Assembly: GCA_036517475.1 (NCBI GenBank)
Contig: DATDVZ010000007.1
Span: 1,706-65,705, forward strand
Reading direction: 5' to 3'
Origin: Minisyncoccota bacterium
GTDB taxonomy: Bacteria > Patescibacteriota > Minisyncoccia > Phycocordibacterales > Zambryskibacteraceae
Length of the DNA: 64,000 bases
Both the position numbers and the translations under genes were made by a program. How positions within the stretch are numbered: position 1 is the stretch's first letter; each line of letters begins with the position of its first letter. The notes under the pieces are model-generated. The model was not told the origin of the DNA. It did no database searches and was given only the letters and a program-made list of their open reading frames with translations. Below, piece by piece: positions 1 to 62,875 of this stretch.

Positions 1-1227
1 GAATGAATGGACTTTGATTTCAGTCAGTCCTTCACCCAGATAAAAGAGCCTGTCAGCAAATGAAAGAATTCCCCTCGCCTGCGCCTTAAACGGCAGAATT
101 TCCTTCTGTCTGGAGCTCTCATCAACAAAAGAAACCTCTATCTGTCCCGAAGATTTTCTAAGAACAATGTAACCGGAATTATTCCTGATTATTTCAGCAT
201 CAGGGGAAATGCTACTGGCAACTTCTCTGCCTGTAAAAATATCAAGAAGAATCCCTGATGAAAGAAGCACTACCCCGCACTCATAGATTCTCACAGCGGG
301 ATCGTTTTCTCTTTCAATCATTTTTTCAAAAACAAGAGAGCCGGTTGCTAGAGAGAGCTTGACCCTCATCGTCATAGCCTGCTTTGGCACCGACACCCCC
401 GTTTCAAACGGAAATGGCGGGGCAGTGCGCAATCCGCGTTCAAAGACTTCTCTGTACCAATTCAGCAATGAATTGGGAATAAGAGAAAAATTTCGCACTG
501 CACGGTTCAGTCTGACATTCTTTGAGAAAACTGATGCATTATCCTTCATTCTTTTTTCAAGATCTGATCTGTCATAAGAGGGATGTGTGCCTTTATACGG
601 ATGTATTCCTGAAAACAGCTGGAATGTTACTACTGCCCATGAAAACCAGTCGCTATTTTCATCAAATGTTTTGGAATGCCAGTCGCGTATTGAAGGCATC
701 ACTGCAATAGCTCCCCATCGCCCTATTGCCCAAGAATCAACATCTACAATAAGTGGCGAAGGATTACTTCCTTTAAACTTCACAAGCCAGTTGAGCTCAT
801 TGGGATCAACGAGAATTGCCCCGTTATTATGCGCAAAGGCGACAGTCTCGCGCATCTTTTCTGCAAGCTCTTTTGCGTGAGAGGCGCTGAAGCCTTCTCT
901 TTGCCAGAAGTCGTTGGTAAAAACACGTGAGAGCGGATGGGCATCAGCGTAGGGCATGATGTATCCGATCGGCTCTTTTTTTTCCGAATAAGCAAGATCC
1001 AGCGGAGCAACAACGTAGGGACAGTGGAGTTTAGAAAGAATTTTTATCTTATCCGGCAGAGCAAGCGAGCGAAACTGCTTCGGATCACTGTAGATTTTTA
1101 CAACCAGATCAGTACTTAGTCTGTAAATAGAACCCTGACCGCCGGTTGCAATATGGTCTCTTGATTTAAGAGTCACGGTGCCACGGCTACTCAAGAGAAC
1201 TTTTATTGCCGCATTGGCGTTACTCAT
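1..1227 (-). CDS. Ser/Thr protein kinase-like protein (TerY-P triad kinase); C-terminus lies beyond window start
   Basis: Hand translation of minus strand from ATG at 1227-1225 gives an unbroken frame of >400 codons to position 1 (MSNANAAIKVLLSSRG...ATGGQGSIYRL..VVKIY, AFAHNNGAILVDPNELNWLV, DVDSWAIG = Gly-loop/Lys, catalytic-loop-like and DxD-like motifs). Absent from the supplied ORF track because no in-window stop. Start overlaps stop of upstream PP2C gene (ATGA). Confidence 0.6.
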   Translation of the reverse strand, partial: MSNANAAIKVLLSSRGTVTLKSRDHIATGGQGSIYRLSTDLVVKIYSDPKQFRSLALPDKIKILSKLHCPYVVAPLDLAYSEKKEPIGYIMPYADAHPLSRVFTNDFWQREGFSASHAKELAEKMRETVAFAHNNGAILVDPNELNWLVKFKGSNPSPLIVDVDSWAIGRWGAIAVMPSIRDWHSKTFDENSDWFSWAVVTFQLFSGIHPYKGTHPSYDRSDLEKRMKDNASVFSKNVRLNRAVRNFSLIPNSLLNWYREVFERGLRTAPPFPFETGVSVPKQAMTMRVKLSLATGSLVFEKMIERENDPAVRIYECGVVLLSSGILLDIFTGREVASSISPDAEIIRNNSGYIVLRKSSGQIEVSFVDESSRQKEILPFKAQARGILSFADRLFYLGEGLTEIKVHSF

Positions 1228-7975: not shown

Positions 7976-9624
7976 TATGGCTTCTCGGCAATTAAAACTA
8001 CATTGGTCGGAGGATAACCAATCTCAACAAGTTTGCCGTCTGTTTTTTCAAATATTTTCACTTTATCTTTATAGCGATTATCAACAATCCATTGATTTGT
8101 ATATACTCGGGATGAATGAGATGGCTGATTCGGGTTTTCTATAATCCTGAAGCCAAGGTTTTTTAAAAATCCTTTCCATTCCTTAAAATCAAAAAAAGTA
8201 AATTCTTCATTCATCTCGCTTTGCCAGTTATCGGCATAATCTTTCTTGCTTAAGAACTCGGCACTATTCCTCAATGTGGTTACAAAAAAGTTCTTTTCAT
8301 CTGCTTTTTCCTCTCTAAAGCGGACTTGAGTATCCTTGCTTCTCTTGCCTTGTATCCTCATGTCATTTAGATAATCATTCGCAAATCTTTTGAATCTAGC
8401 CTCTGTTGAAAGTTTTTTAATGTGTGTCTCTAGCTCATTTGCACTTCCAAAATTCTCAAAAATATCTTCATTTTCTCCGTCCTCGTTGTTAAGCCACAGA
8501 TACACTTCCTTATCTTTATTTTCTGGACCGACAACATCGCGAATTATGAGTCTCCCGCCCGAGCGCATTTGCCTAAATTTCTTTTCAAAATATTTATATA
8601 AGCTTTCTTTTTGGCTGCCATATGACCAGATTTCATGTGTCGTTGAATTGCAGATTGTCGTATCAATGGAATTATCCTCAAAAATTGAATCAAGTAAATT
8701 TTTTTGATGAAAATGAACAAAGGTTCCTCCAAACTCCCCTGCTCTTTGCCTCTCAATACAGCGAGCCATGAATTCAGAAGTAATTTCAATGCCAATAATA
8801 TCTGAATCGGGAAAATCTCTTGCTAAAAGAACAATCAGAGACCCGTCAGCACATCCTTCATCAACAATTTTGCCCGGAACTAGAGCTTCTTTTATATCCT
8901 GATATTTAAGGTTAATAAGTTCGGTATGCCCCATGCCTTGGGCATATGTCGAGTAATTCCTTTCTTCTGTTAATGAACCAGACTCATTTAAAAGCGGGTC
9001 TCGCCATATGCGCCTTATAGTCTCTGGAATTTCAGGAAAATCCCTCCACATAGAAAGGGTTTCCTCGGAAATCATTTCTTCAATTTCCCCAAAACCCTCA
9101 TCAGATTCAGCAAATATTTTTATTATTTCAACAGGAGTGTTTTGTTTTCTTTCTTTTGCATAATAGTCATATTCAGCGGTTAAAACTCCAAATCCTTTTT
9201 TAACATAATCATCAACAAGTTTAGGTGTTGAACATAAAACTAATGTATTTTGAGGATTTAGAGTCAGATGGTCATATGTATTTTCATGAATTTCTTTAAG
9301 AATAAAATCAATATATCGTTCACTGGGAGGATAGTGCGGAATGGCAATAATTCTGTAAGGAGTTGCTGTTTTTTCCTTAACTTTGCTGGCAAATCTGTCT
9401 ATCGCAACTGCTCTTACCCAAAAGGGAACGGGATTATATCTGGAGTTAGATTGATTTGCAGAGGTCACTGCAAAAATTATTTCAGTTATTTTTTCATTAT
9501 CCACCATCTCATGCTTCCCAACTAAATCCATCTGACCAGTAGGAATATTAATTAATTTCTCAATATAATCCTTCTGAAACTTTGTGTTAATAAGATGTCT
9601 GCCTGGAAATAAGAGATATGCCAT
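7975..9624 (-). CDS. two-domain protein: N-terminal nucleotidyltransferase-like region + C-terminal class I SAM-dependent methyltransferase
   Basis: 549 aa; C-terminal half has SAM-binding motif I (VDEGCADGSLIVLLARDFP..DIIGIEI) and post-I acidic motif; N-terminal LLFPGRHLINTKFQ resembles degenerate GRFQPFHKGH cytidylyl/NMN-adenylyltransferase motif (weak). Confidence 0.45.
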   Translation of the reverse strand: MAYLLFPGRHLINTKFQKDYIEKLINIPTGQMDLVGKHEMVDNEKITEIIFAVTSANQSNSRYNPVPFWVRAVAIDRFASKVKEKTATPYRIIAIPHYPPSERYIDFILKEIHENTYDHLTLNPQNTLVLCSTPKLVDDYVKKGFGVLTAEYDYYAKERKQNTPVEIIKIFAESDEGFGEIEEMISEETLSMWRDFPEIPETIRRIWRDPLLNESGSLTEERNYSTYAQGMGHTELINLKYQDIKEALVPGKIVDEGCADGSLIVLLARDFPDSDIIGIEITSEFMARCIERQRAGEFGGTFVHFHQKNLLDSIFEDNSIDTTICNSTTHEIWSYGSQKESLYKYFEKKFRQMRSGGRLIIRDVVGPENKDKEVYLWLNNEDGENEDIFENFGSANELETHIKKLSTEARFKRFANDYLNDMRIQGKRSKDTQVRFREEKADEKNFFVTTLRNSAEFLSKKDYADNWQSEMNEEFTFFDFKEWKGFLKNLGFRIIENPNQPSHSSRVYTNQWIVDNRYKDKVKIFEKTDGKLVEIGYPPTNVVLIAEKP

Positions 9625-9683
9625 AAAATTTATGATTGAAAGCCATTATTTATACAAATAATTCTCATTCATTTTAATATATT

Positions 9684-10616
9684 TTAAATACTTTTAGTTG
9701 CTGGTGTAAGATTAGACTCAATTTCTTTCTTTTTGCTGGAGTAATATTGCTTATGAAATAAAATCGCAATATCTTCCATTATCACTTTATTCTCCATTCT
9801 ATTAATGGCTTCCTCACATTCATTGAAGGTTTGTGGTATATCTTTCTCGCCAAGAAGTGATAGCGCAACTTGAGTATTGGTTAATATATTTGACCGGTAA
9901 CTTTCCTCACTCCTCTGTCTTTTATAATTTTCCAAAACTTTTATATAGTCATGAGGATTTAAAGTAAGTCTTTTTTTAAAATATGGGTTACTAACCTGCG
10001 GCATCTTGCTATACCAAAGATCGCACCAGACAATATTGTTTTGCTTGAATTTCCTCATATAATCAAAAACTTTTTGCGAATCAGGGTGGTCTCCAAGTCC
10101 GCAATCATCGTTATTTAGAATTATTGATTTTCTTAATTCAAGAAGAAATTCAATAGAGGGAGTCTCTGGATATTTTTTAATCAAAAGGTCGTAAAGGATA
10201 GTGTAGGAAAGGCTTTTTTCGCGAAGTGAAGGTATCCTATAGTAGGTGTACATCTCAGTATCGTTTGATGCCACGTATTCGTTGTGGTTTGCAATTTCAC
10301 AGAAATATTCATAATTTAATCTTCGCGGATTAAGAGGGTTGTCAAAAACCATATGCACAAGATCATGAGTAAAAAACATATCGCTCACATAATCACTCTC
10401 ATAGCCACGCATTAAAACAAAATTAAAATATTGAGTGAAATGGGCATATTCATAATCTTTTGTGCTCTTGAAAAATATGGGGCTTCGATGATCAATAATA
10501 AAATCGAGGAGTCCTCTATAGAAAGGGTGTGTTTTAAACTCATTGGTTTTAATCACCTGTGTATTTAAAAAATACTCGTACTCTTCCAATGTTGGAAAAA
10601 AAGTTAAATCTCTCAT
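9684..10616 (-). CDS. hypothetical protein (very AT-rich, Tyr/Asn/Phe-rich)
   Basis: 310-aa ORF with strong coding periodicity, no motif recognised. Confidence 0.4.
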   Translation of the reverse strand: MRDLTFFPTLEEYEYFLNTQVIKTNEFKTHPFYRGLLDFIIDHRSPIFFKSTKDYEYAHFTQYFNFVLMRGYESDYVSDMFFTHDLVHMVFDNPLNPRRLNYEYFCEIANHNEYVASNDTEMYTYYRIPSLREKSLSYTILYDLLIKKYPETPSIEFLLELRKSIILNNDDCGLGDHPDSQKVFDYMRKFKQNNIVWCDLWYSKMPQVSNPYFKKRLTLNPHDYIKVLENYKRQRSEESYRSNILTNTQVALSLLGEKDIPQTFNECEEAINRMENKVIMEDIAILFHKQYYSSKKKEIESNLTPATKSI

Positions 10617-10667
10617 AATTCAATTCAATCACTTAAGAGATTTTAGTCAATAAAAAAATCCGGAGGC

Positions 10668-12020
10668 TTATGCCTCCGGTCCGGAGTTTACAACTTCCGG
10701 TATCAAACCCAAACTATGCTCAAAAGCATCCTGATTGAAGTTGTATCCTTCACCAAGAAATTCAACCACCTTCAAAGCATCACGTCTGGCATTGTAAAGA
10801 CAAACGGAGGCTCCGGGAGAAGGTGTTGTATTGAAAATGCAACTATCTCCAATAATTGTCTTGTCTCCCATTTCTAGCTTCCAAGTCTTCAGATTCACAA
10901 TTTGAGGCCTGATCCCACCAGCACCTTCCCTACGCTTGATATCACGATATCTGATACCCGGAACAATTTTGCGAGCCTCCTTAAGAAGTAGGAACTTGCC
11001 AACAATCGGAAATCTATAAATCAGATTTCTTGACACATATCCGAAGAGTCTATTGGCAAAGAGAATATAAAACATTACCGCAATTCCTCTTAAAGAAGCG
11101 GTTGGAAGCTTCATATAGTCAAAGAAGCTTCTGTAATTATATCGTTCCATAAGTGGCTGAGGTACAGTAGTCGGGCCAAAATGATTCTCTTGCATCTTAA
11201 GTACGTCAGGATCCATATGAAGTTCAGCGAAAGGTCTTCCTTCAACCTGAGGCCGATAAACCTTATTGTAAACCTGCAAGCCAACTGAGTAAAAATCACC
11301 GGCTACTGAGAGAATTCCGTACTCATACCCGTAACCAAGCTTCTGAGCAAAAAGTAAGCTGTAAGCTCCGGCAGCAAAAACTACAACGCGAGCATGAAAT
11401 TCTCCACGATTTGTTTCAATAACATATCCATCTTCTGCTTTTCTTACGTCAATAACTGCAGTTGCGAGAAATAAATCCCCCTTTAAACTAGGTAATCCAT
11501 CAGCAACAAAACATTCTGCCAAAATCTGGTAATTTACCGCAAAACCCTCTGAACTGACTAATGCGCAAATTTTTTCCTCAGGGTTTCGCCCTTCCATGAC
11601 TTTCGGCTCAATCACAGAGAGCTCATCTTCATAAGCAATACGTAAATCAGGATAATAGTCTCTGAATTGTGTATAGCGATCCTCAAGAGCTTTTACCTGA
11701 TCAGTCCCAACTGCAAGCACCATGCGCAAAGTTTTCTTGAATAACCCGTCTGTTTTGCGCCTTGTTATATAACCGCGCAAAAGCTTGGCCGCCTCCTGAA
11801 CCTGAAGTGCGTGTTCAAGATCGTAGTTGGTTTCTGTTCCGCCATCATGTGATGTTTGGGCATTATTGAGCGGATGAGAATTTACGAGCGCAACTCCGTT
11901 GTTTTTTTCCAGAAGCGCGATACTTCTTATGTTGCTGAATCTGGAAAGAGCATAAAACAGAGATGTGCCGGTTACCCCAGCACCCACAATTGCAAGATCG
12001 TAGTGTCTTTTCATTTTCAT
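10668..12020 (-). CDS. FAD-dependent oxidoreductase, malate:quinone oxidoreductase-like
   Basis: N-terminal YDLAIVGAGVTGTSL Rossmann dinucleotide motif; NSHPLNNAQTSHDGGTETNYD and GGIRPQIV resemble Mqo-family blocks. Confidence 0.55.
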   Translation of the reverse strand: MKMKRHYDLAIVGAGVTGTSLFYALSRFSNIRSIALLEKNNGVALVNSHPLNNAQTSHDGGTETNYDLEHALQVQEAAKLLRGYITRRKTDGLFKKTLRMVLAVGTDQVKALEDRYTQFRDYYPDLRIAYEDELSVIEPKVMEGRNPEEKICALVSSEGFAVNYQILAECFVADGLPSLKGDLFLATAVIDVRKAEDGYVIETNRGEFHARVVVFAAGAYSLLFAQKLGYGYEYGILSVAGDFYSVGLQVYNKVYRPQVEGRPFAELHMDPDVLKMQENHFGPTTVPQPLMERYNYRSFFDYMKLPTASLRGIAVMFYILFANRLFGYVSRNLIYRFPIVGKFLLLKEARKIVPGIRYRDIKRREGAGGIRPQIVNLKTWKLEMGDKTIIGDSCIFNTTPSPGASVCLYNARRDALKVVEFLGEGYNFNQDAFEHSLGLIPEVVNSGPEA

Positions 12021-12094
12021 TCATCATCCTAGAAAGTGTGAATGGAAAAGAACTCTAATAAAATAATATCACTAATTTGATAATGAGTCAATAA

Positions 12095-12718
12095 TTAGTT
12101 AAAGCCGTAAAGTTTTTTGAGTTTTATATATTCCGTTGCCTCTTTTGCCATAAATTTCTCAAATGGTTCTCCATTTGCAATCCTGTTTCTTACTTCAGAA
12201 CTTGAGGCACCCTTCAACTTTACTTGAGCTATTTCGAAATTCTCTGGCAGCATTAATTCACTTGGGTCTTTATATCCCTCTCGTGGAAAAATTAAAAATT
12301 TCCATTTTTTAAAAAGCTCTTCTCCCCTTACCCAACGTGCTTGAATTTCATTCAATCCGCTGAATTCTTCTCTTTTTACTATTGAATCAGCACCTGTAAA
12401 CCAGATAACTTCATTATCAGGATAGATTCCTTTATATCTTTCAAGCCATTCAATAGTAGGTGTATTTTGCTTATACAAATCTTCAAATGAAATTGTAAAA
12501 TCCACATCTTTTTTTAAAAACCATTCTGTTGGAATGGTCAATAAGGTAATTATAAGCCTATGTTCTGGATCAATTAAGTTTTTTTTATCATTCCTTTGGC
12601 CAGATATTATCCAAATAACTTTGCTGAATTTTCCACTGTTCAATAGCCAACCAATAAGTTCCCTATGCGCAAGTATCGCTGGATTTGCAGCTGAACCACC
12701 TATTGCAATTGGAAGCAT
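12095..12718 (-). CDS. nicotinate/nicotinamide-nucleotide adenylyltransferase-like (NadD family, divergent)
   Basis: 207 aa; N-terminal GGSAANPAILAHREL (divergent (H/T)xGH region) and C-terminal SSSEVRNRI (SxTxIR-like) motifs; in NAD cluster. Confidence 0.55.
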   Translation of the reverse strand: MLPIAIGGSAANPAILAHRELIGWLLNSGKFSKVIWIISGQRNDKKNLIDPEHRLIITLLTIPTEWFLKKDVDFTISFEDLYKQNTPTIEWLERYKGIYPDNEVIWFTGADSIVKREEFSGLNEIQARWVRGEELFKKWKFLIFPREGYKDPSELMLPENFEIAQVKLKGASSSEVRNRIANGEPFEKFMAKEATEYIKLKKLYGFN

Positions 12719-12758
12719 TTATAAAAATTAAATTAATTTACCTAAATAAAATACCACA

Positions 12759-13430
12759 TCAGACTGATGTGGTAGAGTGTTTAGCAAGGATTTCTCTGAT
12801 TTTTGGATGGTGTATAACGCTAAAAATTTTCATATCAACCATTACTCCTGCCGGAGGATTGCTTAAAAAATCATGAGCCTCAATGAGAGGAACAGTTACA
12901 ACTTCAATATCTTCTCCCGTCTCAAGTTCTGGCTCTGTCACTTTCACGGCATTTAATCCGAGATAAATCACCATATTGTCTTCAACCAAACCTGAATTTA
13001 TCGGCCCTGAAAAAAGCCGGATGACTGAAGAAACTTTATAACCAGTTTCCTCAGTGAGTTCTCTCATCGCTAAAGATTCTTCCTCCTCGCCCTGCTTATC
13101 CATAATACCAGCACAAAGCTCAATAACCCACGATCTAAGAGGAATACGGTAATTTTTTGTAAGAATTAATCTGTCATCCGCTGTGATTGCAGCAATGCCG
13201 ACAATTCTTCCGAAAGTTTTGCGCTTTACACACTCCCAAATTCCCTCTCCGCCTGTTGCATTGTTGCGGAAATGGCGATTGGTAACTGTAATAAACTTGC
13301 CGTCATAGACAAGTTCCTCCTCAAGAATCTCTAAGTTTGTATTTCTCATTATCCTCCAAAATATTTTTCTACTCTTAATGGATACTACATTAGGCAAATA
13401 ATAAATCAAATAGTTTTTATCTCCTTGCAA
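12759..13430 (-). CDS. Nudix hydrolase, ADP-ribose pyrophosphatase-like
   Basis: Nudix box GIMDKQGEEEESLAMRELTEETG; true start may be internal Met (MRNTNLEIL...). Confidence 0.65.
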   Translation of the reverse strand: MQGDKNYLIYYLPNVVSIKSRKIFWRIMRNTNLEILEEELVYDGKFITVTNRHFRNNATGGEGIWECVKRKTFGRIVGIAAITADDRLILTKNYRIPLRSWVIELCAGIMDKQGEEEESLAMRELTEETGYKVSSVIRLFSGPINSGLVEDNMVIYLGLNAVKVTEPELETGEDIEVVTVPLIEAHDFLSNPPAGVMVDMKIFSVIHHPKIREILAKHSTTSV

Positions 13431-13738
13431 ACTAAAAACCGAGTTATTTCTATAACTCGGGCTTGTTTAGACACTATTTTTCCATTTCTGCTTCCGCGCG
13501 CCTTTGGGCAGCCAACCTTGCCAAAATCCGATTATTCTCATTATTCTGGGGAGAAAGTAAATAATCGGGAGCGGTGTATCTGCCACTTGGGCGGTCTTCG
13601 GGAGAGATTTTCATACTTTTTCTTTTGCCTGAATTACGATCTCGGCGCGGTCCTCTCATGATATACTCCGAATTTGGATCTGGGTTTAATTATAATCAGA
13701 AATATTTTTTTGAAAAGTGGAAATAAAAAAATTGTTTA

Positions 13739-18134: not shown

Positions 18135-18258
18135 TACCCCTCCTTTTTAGATATCTTAAACTAATTTAAAACAATCCCCCAATTTTGTCAAAAAATTTTT
18201 TAGAATTTTGATTCTCTTATTCGTCTAGCAAGATCAAATTATATCAGTCCACAAATCT

Positions 18259-18286
18259 ATTCTCTTATTCTCGAGAATAAGAGAAT
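18259..18286. repeat. 28-bp perfect palindrome ATTCTCTTATTCTCGAGAATAAGAGAAT, copy A (plus conserved flank to 18310)
   Basis: Exact repeat of 19550-19577; flank TTGGCAAAGATTATCAGCG also shared. Confidence 0.8.
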
Positions 18287-18303
18287 AGATTTGGCAAAGA
18301 TTA

Positions 18304-18642
18304 TCAGCGGAGTTGGCTGCCCAGATCAATTGAAGGTTTCTTGGGTTCAATAAGCACCCAGCCGTCTCCCTCATTATTGCGGAAGCCGAGTGTAAGGACT
18401 TCAGAAGCAAAAGGTCCAATTTGTTTTGGCGAAAAATTTATTACGCAACACACTAAAGAATTCAATAATTCTTCTTTAGTATGCGCTCCGACAGCTTGAA
18501 CACTGGATTGTTTCGTCCCTACTTCAGTTCCAAAGTCAATTTTTAATTTATATGCCGGTTTTTTCGCTTCAGGAAAATCCGAAACCTCAACCACTTTCCC
18601 CACCCGAATATCAACTTTCTCAAAATCTTCGAATGTAATCAT
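18304..18642 (-). CDS. tRNA-binding domain protein (CsaA/Trbp111/EMAP-II-like OB fold)
   Basis: KVDIRVGKVVEV...; characteristic myf-domain pattern. Confidence 0.65.
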   Translation of the reverse strand: MITFEDFEKVDIRVGKVVEVSDFPEAKKPAYKLKIDFGTEVGTKQSSVQAVGAHTKEELLNSLVCCVINFSPKQIGPFASEVLTLGFRNNEGDGWVLIEPKKPSIDLGSQLR

Positions 18643-18689
18643 AAATTTAGTATAGCAAAACTGCCTCGTCTTAACTTAAGACTTTTAAT

Positions 18690-18848
18690 ATAGACCCTCG
18701 GGGCAAGCCCCGAGGTAATTAATACCGAGCTCATTCCATTCGCACTGAAGCGCGGCGAAGCCGCGCGGTATTAAACCTATATTAGCTCCTCGGCTCGGAA
18801 GTAAAAAAGTTTACTTTCTTACTTCTCTCGCTCTACGTCGCTAATAAA
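18690..18848 (+). repeat. structured GC-rich intergenic repeat, family R, copy 1
   Basis: ATAGACCCTCGGGGCAAGCCCCGAGG hairpin, TAATACCG...CGGTATTA enclosing GCGCGGCGAAGCCGCGC hairpin, conserved 3' module ...TCTCGCTCTACGTCGCTAATAA; near-identical ends to 26594-26756 (inverted) and 49098-49252. Confidence 0.8.
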
Positions 18849-18881
18849 AAAACCCCTCCTTATAAATGAGGGGGTGTGGGA

Positions 18882-19502: not shown

Positions 19503-19549
19503 AACCCTAGCATTTTTACATTAATTTTTAAAGCCCTCACTACAAAACC

Positions 19550-19577
19550 ATTCTCTTATTCTCGAGAATAAGAGAAT
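19550..19577. repeat. 28-bp perfect palindrome, copy B (about 45 nt upstream of HD gene)
   Basis: Identical to copy A; shared flanks CACTACAAA (5') and GATTTTGCAAAGATTATCAGCG (3'). Confidence 0.8.
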
Positions 19578-19676
19578 GGATTTTGCAAAGATTATCAGCG
19601 ATACTGGCTCAAGCAACACTAGCCCATTCCGGTTTTCTTAAGAAAACCGGAATTGATTTTAAAATAATCATTCCAG

Positions 19677-23811: not shown

Positions 23812-23901
23812 AAATTTTCAAAAAAACTCTAGCATTTTTAACCCGTCATCGCCACTCTCCATTGCGGACAAGTCTTATTTTTTATACCCCACTACAAATT
23901 T

Positions 23902-23929
23902 ATTCTCTTATTCTCGAGAATACAAGAAT
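23902..23929. repeat. degenerate copy C of the 28-bp palindrome (ATTCTCTTATTCTCGAGAATACAAGAAT)
   Basis: Left arm identical, right arm 2 mismatches; same 5' flank ACTACAAAT; sits between divergent genes 23811(-) and 24082(+). Confidence 0.7.
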
Positions 23930-24081
23930 GGTTTAAATCATCAAAATTGCACTTCATAAAGAATTCATTTTTATACTATGAAATGATTATTATTTTGTTA
24001 TAGTGTTGTCATAATGCGTTAATGTAATCGTCATTATAAAAGTGCGTTATTTAATTATTTATCATTTATAAAATCAAGAAT

Positions 24082-26572: not shown

Positions 26573-26593
26573 GGGATGCCCGCCAGCTGCCCG

Positions 26594-26756
26594 GTTTATT
26601 AGCGACGTAGAGCGAGAGAGGTAAAAAAGTAAACTTTTTTACTTCCGAGCCGAGGAGCTAATATAGGTTTAATACCGCCTGTCTTTGTCGCGCTTTTAGT
26701 GCGAGCGATAGGGAGTTCGGTATTAATTACCTCGGGGCTTTGCCCCGAGGGTCTAT
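26594..26756 (-). repeat. structured GC-rich intergenic repeat, family R, copy 2 (inverted)
   Basis: Reverse complement matches copy 1 over both terminal modules with a divergent central hairpin; 3' end of element lies about 20 nt from ATL gene ATG. Confidence 0.8.
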
Positions 26757-26836
26757 ATCCTGCCATAAGTAGTTACCTTTCCTCTGGGAATTCTTAAAGC
26801 CATTATAAGAACCCTTTCATTAAAACTGAGCATCTT

Positions 26837-38576: not shown

Positions 38577-38670
38577 AAAGGCTTCGGTTCCGGGCTTCGA
38601 CTGATCTCAGCCGAATGTCCTCAGCCCACTTCGCCTGGCTCGCACTGAGCGAGCGTAGCGAGTCGAAGTG

Positions 38671-38741
38671 CTGCCGGACTTGGACTCGAACCAAGATACT
38701 CGCCTCCAAAGGGCGATGTCCTACCATTAGACGATCCGGCA
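38671..38741 (-). tRNA. tRNA-Gln (anticodon UUG)
   Basis: Manual fold: acceptor UGCCGGA/UCCGGCA, D arm GUCU..GGAC, anticodon stem UCGCC/GGCGA with loop CUUUGGA, T arm CUUGG-UUCGAGU-CCAAG, discriminator G; CCA not encoded. Confidence 0.7.
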
Positions 38742-38777
38742 ATACGAAAAATATACCATAAAAAATAACAATATTTC

Positions 38778-38807
38778 TATTTGTTAATTCGCTCGAATTA
38801 ACAAATA
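38778..38807. promoter_or_regulatory. 30-bp palindrome TATTTGTTAATTCG-CT-CGAATTAACAAATA (downstream copy)
   Basis: Near-identical to 39128-39157; between ArsR stop and tRNA-Gln. Confidence 0.55.
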
Positions 38808-38838
38808 AGTAGGTAAAAATAATATTGCCATGCTAAAA

Positions 38839-39099: not shown

Positions 39100-39127
39100 T
39101 ATTATTGTTTTTTATTTTTAATAGTCT

Positions 39128-39157
39128 TATTTGTTAATTCGTTCGAATTAACAAATA
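39128..39157. promoter_or_regulatory. 30-bp palindrome TATTTGTTAATTCG-TT-CGAATTAACAAATA, candidate ArsR operator
   Basis: 12-2-12 inverted repeat about 30 nt upstream of ArsR ATG. Confidence 0.55.
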
Positions 39158-39174
39158 ATGATGTTGATAGTATT

Positions 39175-40227
39175 TTATACTTGTTCATCTTTGTTGAATA
39201 ATTTAATCAAGGCAAGCTCAATGGGAAGCTCGGGAGTGTATGCCCGGGAGACAAATTCCTGAGCCAGGAGAAGTTCAGAGAGCACTTCGGATCCAATGGC
39301 GCATTCGGGATCCTTTGATACTGCTTTTATAAACTTAAAATCATCATCTGATAACTCCCCTTTTACTTCATCTTCTTCCATACCTCCTCCAAATTTGAGA
39401 AGTAAGACAAATCTCATCTTCTGCAGAACAAGTCTCATAAAAATTTTCATATCAACATTTTGTGATGCAGCTTTATGAACGTATCCTAGAGCTTTTTCAA
39501 GAGATTTATCCGAGACAGATTTTACAAAATCATTAATCAGAGTATTTTGAGGCGCTCCGGTAACTGTTTCTACTTCTTCAATTGAAATTTTCTTATTCTT
39601 GCTGTAGCTCATCACCTTCTGCAGTATTCCCTGCGCATCGCGAAAAGAAGCATCAGCCAAAAGTGCGATGAGTTCTGCAGATGAGGCATCAATCGTAAAA
39701 CCCTCTTTTTTTGAAATATTTGCCACCAGTTCTCTTAAAATTTTCTGGCTTGGTCTTTTAAATTGGTAAATTTGGCAGCGCGAAAGTATAGTTTCAGGAA
39801 TTTTTTCCATTTCTGTCGTTGCTAGAATAAAAATCACGTATTCCGGAGGCTCCTCAAGAGTTTTGAGGAATGCATTCCAAGCTTCTTTGGTAAGCATGTG
39901 AGCCTCATCGATAATGTAAATCTTGTATTTTGATTCAAACGGGACACTTGAAACAGATGTCTTGATTTCCCTGACATCATCAATCCCGCGATTGGAAGCG
40001 GCGTCAATCTCATGCAGATCGCTTGGCGAGACATCCAAGTCCTTGGCAATAATTCTAGCAACAGAAGTTTTGCCAATTCCGCGCGGTCCGGCAAAAAGAT
40101 AAGCGTGAGAAATGTTTCCCAGATCAAGGGCTCCTTTTATAACTTTAACTATATGATCTTGGCCTATAACATCCCCCCACTTTTGCGGGCGGTACTTGCG
40201 ATAAAGAGAAGTAGTCTCAGATGACAT
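39175..40227 (-). CDS. dnaX: DNA polymerase III subunit gamma/tau (short form)
   Basis: LYRKYRPQKWGDVIGQ, Walker A GPRGIGKT, IYIIDEAHML, SRC motif; start set at MSSETTSLY rather than upstream Met of the ORF. Confidence 0.7.
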   Translation of the reverse strand: MSSETTSLYRKYRPQKWGDVIGQDHIVKVIKGALDLGNISHAYLFAGPRGIGKTSVARIIAKDLDVSPSDLHEIDAASNRGIDDVREIKTSVSSVPFESKYKIYIIDEAHMLTKEAWNAFLKTLEEPPEYVIFILATTEMEKIPETILSRCQIYQFKRPSQKILRELVANISKKEGFTIDASSAELIALLADASFRDAQGILQKVMSYSKNKKISIEEVETVTGAPQNTLINDFVKSVSDKSLEKALGYVHKAASQNVDMKIFMRLVLQKMRFVLLLKFGGGMEEDEVKGELSDDDFKFIKAVSKDPECAIGSEVLSELLLAQEFVSRAYTPELPIELALIKLFNKDEQV

Positions 40228-46004: not shown

Positions 46005-46094
46005 CTTGCGTTTTTCTTTTTAATTTATTATTTCTATCCTTTAAATTAATATTGATATTTGCAAATAAAATCTTTTTATAGTATCAATTCACCC

Positions 46095-48299
46095 ATGAGT
46101 AAAAAACTTTTAATTGTTGAGTCGCCGGCAAAAGCAAAAACGATTGGAAAATATCTCGGAGATGAGTACGAGGTTGTTGCCTCAGTCGGGCATATTCGTG
46201 ATTTACCTAAATCAAATAAAAAAGCAATTGATATTGAAGGCGGATTTATACCCCATTATGAAATCGTTAAAGGAAAAGAAAAAGTAATTTCAGAAATAAA
46301 AAGAAAAGCTTCAAAATCTGATGAAATAATCCTTGCTACAGACCCAGACCGCGAGGGGGAGGCTATTGCATGGCATATTTCCGAGCTCATCAAAAATAAG
46401 TCAGCAGAATCAGGAATCAAGAATCATGAATTAAGAATCAAAAGGGTTACTTATCATGAAATTACGGAAGATGCCATAAAAGAAGCGCTCGGGAATCCCA
46501 GAGATATTGATGAGAATTTAAAAACCGCGCAAGAAGCACGCAGGGTTTTAGACAGACTTGTCGGCTACGATCTTTCTGGTCTAATCTGGAAAAAGGTTCG
46601 ATATGGCCTCTCTGCCGGCAGAGTCCAGTCCCCTGCTCTGCGAATACTAATGGAGCGTGAACGTGAAATAAGAGCATTTAAGTCTGAAACATTTTGGACA
46701 ATTACCGCATTATTAAAAAATAAAAATAATATTGAGTATGTTTTCACATGCGAAGAAGAACCAAGGGATAAAAATGAAGTTGAACGAATAATTGATATCG
46801 GCAAAAAGGAAGATTGGGAAATTAAAGACATAAAAGAAACAGAGGTAAAGCGATCCCCCAGACCGCCATTTATTACTTCTACACTTCAGCAAGCGGCAAG
46901 CTCTCGGCTTGGATTTGCACCCTCAAGAACAATGGGTATTGCGCAAAAATTGTATGAATCCGGTTTCATAACTTACATGAGAACTGACAGTACAAATTTA
47001 AGCGAGAATGCAAAAAATCAAATCGCCTCGGTAGTGGAGAAAAAATTTGGCAGGCAGAATTTGCAATTACGAAACTATGCAAAAAAAAGCAAAAACGCTC
47101 AAGAAGCGCATGAAGCTATCCGACCTTCAGATTTATTCAGGGAAGGTGCCGGCCACAATGAAGAGCAAAAAAAGTTGTATAAATTAATCTGGGGAAGAGC
47201 AGTTTCAAGCCAAATGATTGATGCAAAAGTTTTAAGGACCAGAGTCTTGGCGAATACTATAAATGAAAATATTCCTAATTTTGTGCTGAACGGTTCCCGC
47301 ACAATAAGCGACGGCTGGCTTTTAGCTGATCCCATTGCCAAAACAGAAGATGTTGAAGTACCAAAATTTCAAAAGGAAGAAAAACTGAAATTATCTTCAA
47401 TTGATTCAGAGGAAAAGCAAACTCAACCTCCGGCAAGATATTCAGAGGCAGGATTAGTTAAAGAGTTGGAAAAAAGAGGCATTGGAAGGCCCTCAACTTA
47501 TGCTTCAATCATAAAGACACTTCTGGACAGAGGTTACATTGTTAAGGAGCAGAGAGCGCTTCTTCCGACAGATACTGGAGATGTTGTGAGCTCATTTTTG
47601 GAGGAAAATTTTGCAAATTATATCAGCGACACATTTACTGCGGAGATGGAGGATGAACTGGATGAGATAGCGGCCGGTAAAAGAGGTTATGAAAAAACCT
47701 TACGCGACTTCTATACCCCCTTTTTAAAAGACGTGAAGTCAAAGGAAAAAATCACAAAATTGACAAACCTCGGTGAGGCCGACCCAAAATGGAAATGCCC
47801 AGTTTGCGGCTCCTCAATGATTATTAAGCTTGGAAGAAGCGGAAAATTTCTTTCATGTTCAAGATTCCCAGATTGTAAAGGCGCGCGAACAATAGAGGGT
47901 GAGGAGCTCGCGGGGCCAAAAGATACTGGGGAAATATGTCCTGAGTGCGGCAAAGCAAATTTGGTAGAAAGGGATGGTAAATTTGGGCGTTTCATTGCCT
48001 GTTCACGATATCCAAAATGCAAATTTGTTAAAAAAAGTCCGGAAGAGGAAAACCGCAGCAAGACAGGTGTAAAATGCCCCGTTTGCAAAGAAGGTGAAAT
48101 GGTGGAGCGCCGAGGTCGCTTCGGAATTTTTTATTCATGTAGCAATTATCCTAGATGTAAAAACGCCATCAAGGCCAAGCCGACAGGAAATATCTGCCAA
48201 ATGTGCGGATCATTAATGATGGAAGGCACAAAGACTATACCTGAGCGTTGTAGTAATAAACAATGTGTAATGCATAATCCTCATAAAAATAAATTATAA
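46095..48299 (+). CDS. topA: DNA topoisomerase I with C-terminal zinc-ribbon repeats
   Basis: Start chosen at MSKKLLIVESPAKAKTIGKYLG (Toprim) rather than upstream Met at 46059; four C4 zinc ribbons at C-terminus. Confidence 0.85.
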   Translation: MSKKLLIVESPAKAKTIGKYLGDEYEVVASVGHIRDLPKSNKKAIDIEGGFIPHYEIVKGKEKVISEIKRKASKSDEIILATDPDREGEAIAWHISELIKNKSAESGIKNHELRIKRVTYHEITEDAIKEALGNPRDIDENLKTAQEARRVLDRLVGYDLSGLIWKKVRYGLSAGRVQSPALRILMEREREIRAFKSETFWTITALLKNKNNIEYVFTCEEEPRDKNEVERIIDIGKKEDWEIKDIKETEVKRSPRPPFITSTLQQAASSRLGFAPSRTMGIAQKLYESGFITYMRTDSTNLSENAKNQIASVVEKKFGRQNLQLRNYAKKSKNAQEAHEAIRPSDLFREGAGHNEEQKKLYKLIWGRAVSSQMIDAKVLRTRVLANTINENIPNFVLNGSRTISDGWLLADPIAKTEDVEVPKFQKEEKLKLSSIDSEEKQTQPPARYSEAGLVKELEKRGIGRPSTYASIIKTLLDRGYIVKEQRALLPTDTGDVVSSFLEENFANYISDTFTAEMEDELDEIAAGKRGYEKTLRDFYTPFLKDVKSKEKITKLTNLGEADPKWKCPVCGSSMIIKLGRSGKFLSCSRFPDCKGARTIEGEELAGPKDTGEICPECGKANLVERDGKFGRFIACSRYPKCKFVKKSPEEENRSKTGVKCPVCKEGEMVERRGRFGIFYSCSNYPRCKNAIKAKPTGNICQMCGSLMMEGTKTIPERCSNKQCVMHNPHKNKL

Positions 48300-48440
48300 T
48301 TGGTAAGCAGGCACACTACTGTGCCTGCGCTAATAGTCTTTGTGAGGCACAGCGATGTCGCATCAGCAGATGCGACCGCGAGCCGGGGTCGCGAGCGCTT
48401 TCGCTCGACGGAGCGAAGGCGACTTGTGACCTAAAACTAT
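48300..48440. repeat. GC-rich multi-hairpin insert between topA stop and a diverged duplicate of topA's last 17 codons
   Basis: Hairpins GCAGGCAC-ACUAC-GUGCCUGC, GUCGCAU-CAGCAG-AUGCGAC, UUCGCUC-GACG-GAGCGAA; followed (48441-48493) by copy of topA 3' end. Confidence 0.6.
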
Positions 48441-48496
48441 CCCGGAGCGCTGTTCTAATAAAGCGTGTCCAAACCATAATCCTCATAAATTAAAAA

Positions 48497-49000
48497 ATGC
48501 AAAATAAATGTGGTTATATTAAAATTACTATAGTGGATAAAAAGAAAAAAAAGGCCTCAAGTGCATTTACATTGATTGAAGTATTAATAGTAATCGGGAT
48601 AATTGCGGTCCTCGCAGGAATAGTTCTTGTTGCCATTAATCCCGGCAGGCAGTTTGCCCAAGCTAGGGACACTCAAAGGATAAGTAACATCAATGCAATT
48701 TTAAATGCAATCGGACAATATACAATTGATAATAAAGGAATGCTTCCGGTTGGAATCCCCGCAAAAGGAGATAACCCAATTGAAATAGATCAGACTATCT
48801 GCTCTGCAATTGTACCGACATACCTGCCGGCACTTCCAACAGACCCATCATCAAGTTCCAAAGGTGCTTCAATTACTGACTGTGATAGTGTTGCAACAAG
48901 CACCGTTCTATACGCAATATTTCAGGACAATAATGGCAGGATTACTGTAAGCACAGAAAGGGGCGAGATCGGGACCTCGACTATATCTGCTACCAGATAA
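48497..49000 (+). CDS. type IV pilin (prepilin-type N-terminal methylation domain)
   Basis: AFTLIEVLIVIGIIAVLAGI class III signal; terminator AAACCCGCATTTCGCGGGTTTTT at 49060-49085. Confidence 0.65.
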   Translation: MQNKCGYIKITIVDKKKKKASSAFTLIEVLIVIGIIAVLAGIVLVAINPGRQFAQARDTQRISNINAILNAIGQYTIDNKGMLPVGIPAKGDNPIEIDQTICSAIVPTYLPALPTDPSSSSKGASITDCDSVATSTVLYAIFQDNNGRITVSTERGEIGTSTISATR

Positions 49001-49097
49001 CAAAATTAAGAGATTAAAATCCAAAAGAGGAAAATCTAAAATTTAGAATACGTGAAACAAAAACCCGCATTTCGCGGGTTTTTGTTTTGCATGCAAT

Positions 49098-49252
49098 ATA
49101 GTCCCTCGTGGCAAGCCCCGAGGTAATTACGGAACTCGCTTCGCTTATCCATTTAGCGCGGCAAGCCGCGCAGTATTGGACTATATTAGCTCCTCGGCTC
49201 GGAAATGGAAAAGTAAAACTCTTCCATTTCTCTCGCTCTACGTCGCTAATAA
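49098..49252 (+). repeat. structured GC-rich intergenic repeat, family R, copy 3
   Basis: ATAGTCCCTCGTGGCAAGCCCCGAGG..GCGCGGCAAGCCGCGC..TATATTAGCTCCTCGGCTCGGAA..TCTCGCTCTACGTCGCTAATAA. Confidence 0.8.
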
Positions 49253-49259
49253 GGATAGA

Positions 49260-49460
49260 TTACATAGCTGCGCCTCCTGACTGCTTCTTGTAGGTGAAGA
49301 GAGAATAGAGTGCAGAAAGACCAACCAAAATATAAACAATCATAGAGATACCGCTGCCCAGAATACTCTCAACTACGTTACCAAGACCAACCCCCATCAG
49401 GCCCCAGTTTAGGCCTCCGATTACGAGCAGAACCCAGGCAACTGTTTGTAAACCTTTCAT
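49260..49460 (-). CDS. DUF378-family small membrane protein
   Basis: GGLNWGLMG motif. Confidence 0.55.
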   Translation of the reverse strand: MKGLQTVAWVLLVIGGLNWGLMGVGLGNVVESILGSGISMIVYILVGLSALYSLFTYKKQSGGAAM

Positions 49461-50140: not shown

Positions 50141-50380
50141 ATGGAACCCCATCAAAAAGATCGTGAAAAAACAGCTATCTTTGAAAGAGCCTGTGCGGGT
50201 TGCAGAGCCGTTCTGCAGATCAATCCACAAAACATCAACCCAAGGATCCCGTATATTCTATGCCCTACCTGCGGACTTGAGTGTATGATTCCTCAGGACG
50301 CTATTTATATGGCCGAGCTGATTCTTAAGGAAAAAAGAAGAAAGTACGGCCGACGAAACAAAGCTATAAATCCCGAATAG
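50141..50380 (+). CDS. small zinc-ribbon protein
   Basis: CxxC...CxxC; terminator AAATCCCGAATAGGGATTTTTTT at 50368-50390. Confidence 0.4.
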   Translation: MEPHQKDREKTAIFERACAGCRAVLQINPQNINPRIPYILCPTCGLECMIPQDAIYMAELILKEKRRKYGRRNKAINPE

Positions 50381-50388
50381 GGATTTTT

Positions 50389-50700
50389 TTATAAACGACG
50401 TAGAGCGAGAGAAATGAAAAATTCTTATTTTTCATTTCCGAGCCGAGGAGTTTATATAGTATCCAATTATATAAACGACGTAGAGTGAAAAAGCGAAAAC
50501 ATGGAGCTTTTGCAAGGTCGGAGCACGACGGTGCGAGACAGGATCGAAAGATTTTTCAGTAGAAAAATACTTTTGATAGAGAAGTGAGAAAGTTTACTTT
50601 CTCACTTACGAGCCGAGGTGAGGAAGCGAATACATGGAGCCCATTCGGGTCTGAAAGACCCTCAGGGTCTTAAACGACTTCGCAAGACTTTGAGCTCCGA
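50389..50700 (-). repeat. family R repeats, two partial/variant copies in tandem (inverted orientation)
   Basis: TTATAAACGACGTAGAGCGAGAG...CCGAGCCGAGGAG (rc of 3' module) at 50389-50466 and a second rearranged copy 50471-50700. Confidence 0.6.
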
Positions 50701-62695: not shown

Positions 62696-62746
62696 CAGAT
62701 CTTTTTGTTTGAAACAAAGAAGTAATTTGATACGATACAACACATT

Positions 62747-62778
62747 GGGAGCTTAGTTAAGTGGTATAACTGCGGTCT
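62747..62778 (+). pseudogene. partial duplicate of tRNA-Trp 5' half (acceptor-D-anticodon stem region)
   Basis: GGGAGCTTAGTTAAGTGGTATAACTGCGGTCT matches 62803-62834 (GGGTGGTTAGTTAAGTGGTATAACTGCGGTCT) with 3 changes, then diverges. Confidence 0.6.
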
Positions 62779-62802
62779 AGTTAAAAAAATAAAGAAAAGT
62801 TT

Positions 62803-62873
62803 GGGTGGTTAGTTAAGTGGTATAACTGCGGTCTCCAAAACCGCTATCGAGGGTTCGATTCCTTCACCACCCG
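62803..62873 (+). tRNA. tRNA-Trp (anticodon CCA)
   Basis: Acceptor GGGUGGU/ACCACCC, D arm GUUA-AGUGGUA-UAAC, anticodon stem GCGGU/ACCGC loop CUCCAAA, T arm GAGGG-UUCGAUU-CCUUC. Confidence 0.7.
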
Positions 62874-62875
62874 TA

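Follow-up and report, generated by a model that had tools for sequence, protein, structure and literature searches.

A structured, guide-bearing and probably mobile miniature element at the 3' end of topA in ultra-small bacteria

Introduction

Why is a gene for DNA topoisomerase I followed, after a short GC-rich block, by a second copy of its own 3' end, and what is the block that separates the two? The question is raised by a 64,000-nucleotide stretch of DNA from a Minisyncoccota bacterium (GenBank assembly GCA_036517475.1, contig DATDVZ010000007.1, positions 1,706 to 65,705 of the forward strand), the whole of which is called the window (64 kb) below and in whose coordinates all features of the topA locus are given. 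An initial annotation, made from the sequence alone, took the block for the miniature remnant of a larger integrating element. We now consider it rather likely that a miniature, protein-less, site-specific element (48230-48431) sits in the last 22 codons of topA, that it is mobilised in trans and targeted by an internal guide, and that it has imported the gene end (R1) which topA uses today. It belongs to a large and apparently undescribed family found next to the tRNA, transfer-messenger RNA (tmRNA) and topA genes of the ultra-small bacteria of the Candidate Phyla Radiation (CPR).

Two ends of one gene

The open reading frame (ORF) at 46059-48299 on the plus strand encodes a full-length topoisomerase I with the C-terminal end GTKTIPERCSNKQCVMHNPHKNKL, and the Toprim, Topoisom_bac and Zn_ribbon_Top1 domains (Pfam) are recorded on the identical topA gene of other assemblies. 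Its last 22 codons and stop (KTIPERCSNKQCVMHNPHKNKL; R1, 48230-48299, plus strand) form the functional copy of the gene end and, judging from the translation, the codon comparison and the agreement with the guide described below, would be supplied by the element. Behind the block lies R2 (48432-48507, plus strand; KTIPERCSNKACPNHNPHKLKNAK, then stop), a copy that is not translated and probably represents the displaced end; its tail overlaps the start of the next gene. The two copies stand out as a direct repeat of 57 nucleotides (nt), at 48231-48287 and 48433-48489, with 77% identity and a spacing of 202 nt, the sole such repeat of the region. The initial annotation had correctly noticed the second copy and its similarity to the first, but several of its details have to be replaced. 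The copy begins 8-9 nt earlier than had been stated (K-T-I before PERC) and runs to the stop at 48507, 16 of 19 aligned residues are identical instead of 12 of 17, and the reading frame, said to be that of topA, is in fact +1 relative to it. Its translation reads L, stop, PKTIPERCSNKACPNHNPHKLKNAK, stop, with the TGA within GTGACC immediately preceding the frame.

The differences between the copies are mostly silent. Over the 19 codons shared by R1 and R2 there are five synonymous differences (including AGT/TCT for Ser) and three non-synonymous ones, and in other topA loci the ratio of synonymous to non-synonymous differences is, for example, 12:2, 12:1, 15:1, 11:2 or 9:2 (11 loci with an intact second copy). 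Both copies must therefore have evolved as coding sequence in separate lineages before they were juxtaposed, as had been proposed from the synonymous substitutions of this locus, and for topA-type copies the excess rules out a target-site duplication or divergence in place. The possibility of an assembly error, raised at the outset, can be set aside as well, since five further contigs (ENA, JGI and Logan assemblies, from different samples) have exactly the same 321 nt (48200-48520).

A covarying module of three hairpins

As had been annotated, topA ends at 48299 and a GC-rich block with three strong hairpins follows. This block (48300-48431, 132 nt) has a G+C content of 0.60-0.64 against about 0.39 around it, and its three-hairpin fold reaches -79.4 kcal/mol (z = -7.1), which none of 200 shuffled sequences equalled; the fold of the minus strand is weaker (-68.7 kcal/mol). 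Folding of a longer segment of 225 nt (48221-48445) gives z = -9.65, and its minimum-energy structure contains a further helix, P1, formed by the guide and its target. The putative mobile unit of 202 nt (48230-48431, plus strand), with boundaries drawn from the repeat spacing and from family comparison, would consist of R1, a tip hairpin, the guide and the hairpins P2 and P3. The tip hairpin (hp1; 48307-48328, plus strand) reads GCAGGCACA-CTAC-TGTGCCTGC and forms helix 1, all eight pairs of which covary across the family; tRNA-type copies have a similar apex, GCAAACTGCTTTGC. P2 (48346-48384, plus strand), recognised from the fold and the covariation of helices 2-5, combines a variable, covarying apex with an internal loop that is GGA/GA in the family and ACA/GA here. 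P3 (48387-48431, plus strand) is a long hairpin with a conserved basal stem, GGUCG/UGACC, in which conserved G.U pairs occur and with which the element ends (...GACC); all 17 pairs of its helix 6 covary. The consensus of the family can be written as guide - A - GnC GGA (P2 apex) GA GnC - GG - GGUCGCGA...(P3)...UUGUGACC.

The structure is well conserved across the family. RNAalifold, applied to 13 well-aligned copies, gave 39 pairs, of which 30 show compensatory changes, and the covariance model built from this alignment proved usable for mapping the family. In the window it has exactly one match (48300-48432, 136.9 bits). When 122 distinct sequences were compared, 95.6% of the cells were paired, 38 of the 39 pairs had changes on both sides, and the covariation score was 0.624, as opposed to 0.154 in shuffles (0 of 500 reached 0.624) and about 0.07 in slid controls. 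Two G.U pairs in the basal stem of P3, present in 109 and 80 of the 122 sequences and on the plus strand only, indicate that the folded strand is the sense strand, either as RNA or as single-stranded DNA.

No Rfam 15 family corresponds to the module, either in the window (E <= 10) or at 20 other loci (E <= 1), the only hits being the neighbouring tRNAs and a fluoride riboswitch, and BLAST of the module against phage and plasmid collections returned no match. Readings of the core as a hammerhead, a hairpin ribozyme or a K-turn were rejected, as the consensus does not fit them. A subfamily (L097, L106, L121, L129, L160, L179 and L197, the L numbers denoting loci of our collection) is set apart by an additional mini-hairpin, GAAAGCGTACTCGCGGT or GAACATGTAATCATGA, which is conserved and comes directly behind ..GTGACC, between P3 and R2.

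A guide that spans the junction

Between the tip hairpin and P2 lies a single-stranded segment of 9-15 nt, here ATAGTCTTTGTG (48333-48344, plus strand), which is complementary at 12 of 12 positions to CACAAAGACTAT (48227-48238). The complement spans the left repeat boundary: it comprises B3, the last three host nucleotides (CAC; 48227-48229, plus strand) before the putative insertion junction, which pair with the 3' end of the guide, and the first 9 nt of R1. In the members examined in detail the guide is likewise the reverse complement of the target across the junction, with 3 nt upstream and 6-15 nt downstream of it. The longest perfect guide complement in an element's own upstream 130 nt has a median of 9 nt (maximum 17), as against a median of 5 in the upstream sequences of other elements, and this control value holds although most targets share the T-loop sequence. 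Upstream of the boundary the match always includes 3 nt, occasionally 4. Junctions are of the types ggTTC/GAATCC.. (T-loop), ggCAC/AAAGACTAT (topA) and CAC/AAAAGC (tRNA 3' end), the slash marking the junction, which always follows a C, just as the element always ends in ..GACC.

The host side of the pairing is of particular weight. Among 15 distinct topA-type copies the guide shows 90% complementarity to B3 and the next 9 nt (B3+O9), and B3 itself matches the guide in 13 of the 15, including rare synonymous variants of the host, GGT-AC (TAC; L027, L184) and GGG-AC (GAC; L059). B3 lies outside the repeated unit and yet covaries with the guide, which shows a functional pairing of element and host. 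The guide was also considered as a tRNA-primer-binding site; this reading was ruled out, as topA-type guides match topA and not tRNA.

A family at topA, tRNA and tmRNA genes

The topA survey, with one genome per species, covered 80 topA loci of Paceibacteria/Parcubacteria with at most 73% amino-acid identity to that of the window, and the module with a duplicated topA end was found in 14 of these 80 related genomes, with more in metagenome contigs. A second topA end lies 190-340 nt downstream of the first in L002, L008, L009, L027, L030 and L071. The insert is accompanied by a damaged second copy in L001 (two tandem units), L011 (frameshift), L049 (internal deletion) and L059 (frameshifts), as well as in L013, L023 and L021, and it is also present in L004. 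The attL/attR-like topology that had been suggested, in which an inserted element supplies a replacement 3' end, is upheld by this recurrence. At the same position, L005 (6245-6330) and L006 (5706-5870) have a different hairpin insert, behind which a second topA end is again found; since L005 has a functional copy of the '..NYRPDKL' type but a downstream copy of the '..NHNPHK' type, the two descend from clearly different topA lineages. In L042, L052 and L053 a separate ORF with further Top1-type zinc-ribbon repeats directly follows the topA stop.

A metagenome scan with the core pattern gave at least 120 loci, about 100 of them true, and across all collected loci the covariance model matches at least 163 copies in CPR contigs. 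The search for further copies thus has two outcomes, one copy only in the window and many elsewhere. Of the 163 matches listed, 109 have a same-strand tRNA gene (21 amino-acid specificities) or tmRNA gene (4) no more than 700 nt upstream, about 21 lie at topA, and most others are at contig ends or within tandem arrays. Tandem arrays are common, and several contigs have 2-3 copies inside a few kb. Additional matches in the topA loci, some 3 kb away, are just 3' of tRNA-Leu(CAA) or tRNA-Tyr, and there the sequence immediately after ..GACC is a copy of the tRNA from the T-loop to the 3' end. Wherever a member was looked at closely, the target's 3' end recurs behind the module, often in decayed form, and the module always lies downstream of its target gene and in the same orientation. 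The block is in this light a conserved, covarying and target-complementary unit of about 130 nt, repeated at tRNA and tmRNA genes as well, and the notion of a remnant of a larger integrase-bearing element, with which the initial annotation had explained it, is not supported; neither the guide nor the family had been noticed there. Full-text literature searches found no description of the family.

Two observations stand somewhat apart from this distribution. A scan of IMG/VR with the core pattern gave one true locus only, L083; in L083 / L198 (IMGVR_UViG_3300033463_005745, classed as viral), at least three tandem family units lie at the contig end, downstream of a small NrdD-like ORF and without a detectable tRNA, and could be a vehicle for horizontal spread. 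In L044 (9300-9633) and L202 (about 50-280, reverse strand) the module follows a tRNA 5' fragment that extends up to the D-arm; in L044 a complete tRNA-Leu comes next, after about 60 nt. This mirror arrangement falls outside the 3'-end model.

The 202-nt unit contains no ORF, and among ORFs of at least 150 amino acids within 4 kb of about 105 copies no family was enriched beyond housekeeping genes. The element is therefore regarded as non-autonomous, as had been proposed, and the integrase or recombinase that had been expected near such sites has no counterpart in an enriched family there. The neighbours in the window are housekeeping genes as well (dnaX, serS, dprA, pilins, hisS and relA/spoT): dprA is upstream of topA, and downstream, outside the element, follows a gene for a prepilin-type protein (48497-49000, plus strand; Pfam N_methyl). 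Two kinds of gene were seen beside a few copies. An ORF of about 229 amino acids with an N-terminal helix-turn-helix and a LAGLIDADG-like motif (LLAMLYWAEGSK) adjoins module-bearing tRNA genes at 3-4 loci only (L105, reverse strand, 525-1211; also L115 and L215). In L177 (reverse strand, about 7985-13535) R1, in tRNA-Tyr, is separated from a family module with R2 by an island of 5.4 kb; it encodes a 515-amino-acid large serine recombinase flanked by inverted repeats of about 150 bp and a Schlafen/AlbA_2-HATPase_c_4 protein flanked by a second inverted-repeat pair, and the repeated spacer sequence suggests that the island was inserted secondarily into the spacer of an existing mini-element.

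Which end was imported, and how insertion may proceed

Several observations point to R1 as the copy that travels. R1 is intact in every locus, while frameshifts, deletions or point damage affect R2 in about 40% of topA loci, and many tRNA loci have only 6-12 nt of it left. Where the two differ, 11 of 13 informative loci (from a table read by eye) have a guide that follows R1, which ties R1 to the element. A travelling R2 would have lacked a function in each previous host, and degradation would be expected everywhere; with R1 as the travelling copy, both would have been functional until insertion, which fits the clean synonymous pattern. From these sequence comparisons we infer that the element extends over 48230-48431, with R1 as the import and R2 (48432-48507) as the displaced native end.

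In the mechanism that we propose, insertion would take place after the C of ..GGCAC within the topA end. The element would bring a replacement end (R1 with its stop codon), so that topA stays intact, and the original end (R2) would be left downstream, untranslated and free to decay. The guide would pair with the top strand across the junction, that is with 3 host nt and the first 6-15 nt after them, and this pairing by a folded single strand (RNA or top-strand DNA) would select the insertion site, while a factor whose gene lies elsewhere in the genome would carry out the strand exchange. A fold that is conserved, covarying and strand-specific, together with a guide that spans the junction, suggests that a folded single strand pairs with the target. 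The nucleotide sequences of R1 and R2 are 23-37% different, too far apart for homologous recombination, so that spread between lineages needs a site-specific reaction on short sequences. That the element is mobile and non-autonomous and brings a replacement gene end can be said with high confidence. For target selection by the guide our confidence is moderate, and for the chemistry of the insertion reaction it is low.

Weighing the alternatives

A number of points weigh against this interpretation. No empty site was found in a close relative: all Rifle contigs are occupied, six contigs, identified by an exact match to the downstream pilin protein and extending as far as topA, have an identical 197-nt gap, and all-against-all comparisons of the topA 3' regions and of all loci yielded no close pair differing in occupancy. 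The comparison with relatives has hence revealed recurrence at topA but no unoccupied close relative, and the exact boundaries and the native copy are for this reason deduced and not observed. The nearest TopA proteins, 81% identical, leave the native end undecided, and codon-usage likelihood does not separate R1 from R2. No mobilising enzyme was seen in the flanks of about 105 copies or in the scanned part of the window, nor was an excised form or a transcript seen. The guides of the topA-type copies L009 and L049 match the host junction poorly, and what keeps guide and B3 complementary could be selection on a helix within the co-transcribed RNA after integration, and not the choice of a target. 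Finally, the elements at topA and tRNA-Leu of L004 have nearly identical P2/P3 but different guides, a pattern that needs either an exchange of modules between copies or a retargeting mechanism that we cannot explain.

Could the locus then be what is left of an integrase-encoding island, with a tyrosine or serine integrase acting at the topA 3' end, the interior deleted, the attL and attR arms fused and the hairpins incidental? The order of host sequence, R1, insert and R2 is indeed that of attL/attR, tRNA T-loops, tRNA 3' ends and tmRNA are classical integrase targets, and L177 has its large serine recombinase island between R1 and the module. We nevertheless regard such an origin as unlikely. 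Protein-binding att arms would not preserve hairpins to the extent seen in this module, kept in at least 163 copies with 38 of 39 pairs compensatory; independent deletions would not be expected to converge on one unit; recombinase genes show no enrichment in the flanks of about 105 copies; more than 20 targets, every one of them with its own fitting guide, share one module, for which a single sequence-specific integrase offers no explanation; and the L177 island itself looks inserted into the spacer of a pre-existing mini-element. An intron-like RNA appears just as improbable to us. In such a case the 202 nt would be removed from the transcript, the guide would serve as an internal guide sequence (IGS) for both exon ends, and the host part would be joined to R2, so that both R1 and R2 are used. 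The guide does span the junction in the order of a group I IGS (5', reverse complement of the 3' side, reverse complement of the 5' side, 3'), R2 can pair with the same guide, both copies have kept their coding capacity in 11 loci, and the conserved G.U pairs are on the sense strand of an element that is always co-oriented with its target. The damage pattern speaks against splicing, however, given that about 40% of topA loci and many tRNA loci have a broken R2 but none a broken R1, and so do the absence of any match to a group I, group II or small-ribozyme model, the terminal C in place of G, the C-G instead of U.G junction pair, and a body of two hairpins, far below any known self-splicing core.

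A vertically inherited, non-mobile host RNA, acting in cis as a 3' untranslated region or as a small RNA (for example as a regulator of topA or of tRNA maturation) and with the downstream copy as structural partner of the guide, would account for the strong conservation of structure, for the constant position downstream of and co-oriented with the target gene and for the fixation of the module in the Rifle population. It is very unlikely all the same, as the module is patchy at topA (14 of 80 genomes) and forms tandem arrays, each of dozens of unrelated targets has its matching guide, R1 and R2 of a pair are xenologous, and three tRNA genes in the window have no module. The idea that the locus arose by local duplication or replication template switching, with direct, inverted and direct copies made in place, or is an artefact of assembly, can claim that R1, the inverted guide and R2 make up just such a triplet of one target segment and that R1 and R2 are identical in some tRNA loci. 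It is barely credible to us and already largely refuted by the synonymous excess, which excludes neutral divergence in place from one sequence, and by the identical sequence in five independent assemblies; the P2/P3 core, moreover, is foreign to the target. The guided miniature element with an imported R1 is thus the explanation that we retain.

Possible significance

It is conceivable, though we would put it forward only tentatively, that the family represents a new class of nucleic-acid-guided mobile element, in which a structured RNA or single-stranded DNA of about 130 nt combines a programmable guide, paired across the target junction and directing insertion into conserved gene ends, with a recoded rescue copy of the displaced end and is served by an unknown trans-acting CPR enzyme or by the RNA itself, through reversible cleavage and ligation between the C and the R repeat. 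If base pairing chooses the target, the family would amount to a natural system of very small size by which essential genes receive programmable, scar-tolerant insertions, and its layout, an insertion in an essential gene together with a recoded replacement end, is that of synthetic 'home-and-rescue' gene drives. The reduced genomes of CPR/Patescibacteria are thought to be poor in transposons, and the family would add a type of mobile element to them and point to an unknown recombinase, nuclease or ribozyme activity. It also explains a recurrent oddity of CPR annotation, namely the pseudo-3' ends of tRNA, tmRNA and topA genes and the GC-rich islands in AT-rich genomes.

Other repeats of the window

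The window contains further repeats that are separate from the topA locus. A second, unrelated family of about 165 nt has four copies in both orientations, at 18670-18870 (plus), 26580-26760 (minus), 49080-49270 (plus) and 50360-50480 (minus), one of them just after the pilin gene downstream of R2, and features a conserved block, CTATATTAGCTCCTCGGCTCGGAA...CTCTCGCTCTACGTCGCTAATAA, as well as several GC-rich hairpins (CCCTCGGGGCAAGCCCCGAGG, GCGCGGCAAGCCGCGC). A further element of 40-68 nt has at its core the perfect palindrome TTCTCTTATTCTCGAGAATAAGAGAA, which may be operator-like or mobile, and occurs three times, at 18251-18318, 19542-19609 and 23894-23961. Inverted and direct repeats around TTATTTGTTAATTCG.TCGAATTAACAAATAA (38760-38809 and 39126-39175; also direct at 38770 and 39120) adjoin a tRNA-Gln gene (38670-38741). 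The 5' half of tRNA-Trp, up to the anticodon stem, is present in a 34-nt copy with 94% identity (62745-62778 for 62801-62834), 56 nt upstream of the real gene (62802-62874); here a 5' end is duplicated and no module lies between the copies.

Comparison with known systems

The element shares features with several known systems, and the defining features of none of the compared families are fully present in it. Integrative elements in the 3' ends of tRNA, tmRNA and protein genes carry a replacement end, examples being e14 and phage 21 in icd, tRNA and tmRNA islands and the integrase-less cis-mobilizable elements (CIMEs). Like these, the present element keeps its target intact by an element-borne 3' end and has the displaced native end as a direct repeat on the far side, and the spectrum of targets (tRNA T-loop, tRNA 3' end, tmRNA, end of an essential protein gene) is the same. 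At topA, tRNA and tmRNA sites alike, a direct repeat of the target's 3' end occurs at both borders and the gene is rebuilt by the proximal copy. Unlike integrative elements, it measures 130-200 nt, its conserved part is a covarying fold, an internal segment is complementary to the junction, and one core serves more than 20 targets; an integrase is lacking in cis and nearby, no tyrosine or serine integrase having been found within the element beside the att site, in the flanks of about 105 copies or among the neighbours in the window.

Other mobile elements offer partial parallels for the fold and the guide. In the single-strand transposons IS200/IS605, moved by the Y1 HUH transposase TnpA, and their non-autonomous palindrome-associated derivatives (PATEs), strand-specific hairpins, precise insertion 3' of a short host sequence, the lack of a fixed-length target duplication, the pairing of a flanking cleavage site by an internal 'guide' next to a hairpin and the many protein-less copies may have counterparts here, where the hairpins covary, G.U(T) pairs are on the plus strand and the junction always follows a C. 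The guide of the present element is longer, however (9-17 nt instead of 4-5), lies 3' of the left hairpin and also pairs with the first nucleotides of the element; the left and right hairpins are dissimilar, a gene-end replacement is carried, and the long R repeat is not a feature of IS605. No Y1 HUH TnpA or TnpB was seen in the collected flanks or in the scanned part of the window. IS110/IS1111 elements use a bridge RNA or seekRNA, and the family has in common with them that a structured non-coding RNA, about 130-180 nt long and with two stem-loops, contains a complement of the target, that insertion is site-specific and oriented and that reprogramming of the target is possible. Their two internal loops with split programmable guides for target and donor have no equivalent in the module, which has one contiguous guide outside the stem-loops and conserved, non-programmable internal loops in P2 and P3; the target's right flank is duplicated, the element has no DEDD transposase gene, and no transposase was found in the flanks.

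Group I introns (IGS, P1/P10) and group II introns (exon- and intron-binding sequences, EBS/IBS) likewise pair an internal sequence with both sides of the junction. The nearest study found describes genuine group I introns in the anticodon loops of Patescibacteria tRNA genes and reports group II introns to be absent from this phylum (PMC13011429). The family thus has tRNA genes of the same phylum in common with the former, but it occupies the T-loop or the 3' end and not the anticodon loop, duplicates the exon end, and has neither a catalytic core nor an Rfam match. A group I P3-P9 core, terminal G and U.G pair at the 5' splice site were not found, the module ending in ..GACC with a C-G junction pair, and the six domains of a group II intron, including domain V and the usual reverse transcriptase, were not found in the 130-nt core with its two hairpins either. 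Small self-cleaving ribozymes (hammerhead, twister, pistol, hatchet, hepatitis delta virus-like and hairpin) were rejected for want of an Rfam match and of a CUGANGA...GAAA core in the consensus. A diversity-generating retroelement with its template and variable repeats was rejected too, as the mismatches are not adenine-specific (C/A, T/G and T/C, in both directions) and no reverse transcriptase is in the neighbourhood.

The attC sites of integrons and attP(+) of the CTX phage are recombination sites made of a folded single strand. The present element differs from them in having no R/L-box or dif-like consensus and a site sequence that varies with the target. As in those systems, a strand-specific fold would recreate a duplex recombination site, here with R1 paired to the guide and mimicking the double-stranded target, and a recombinase provided by the host or in trans would suffice.

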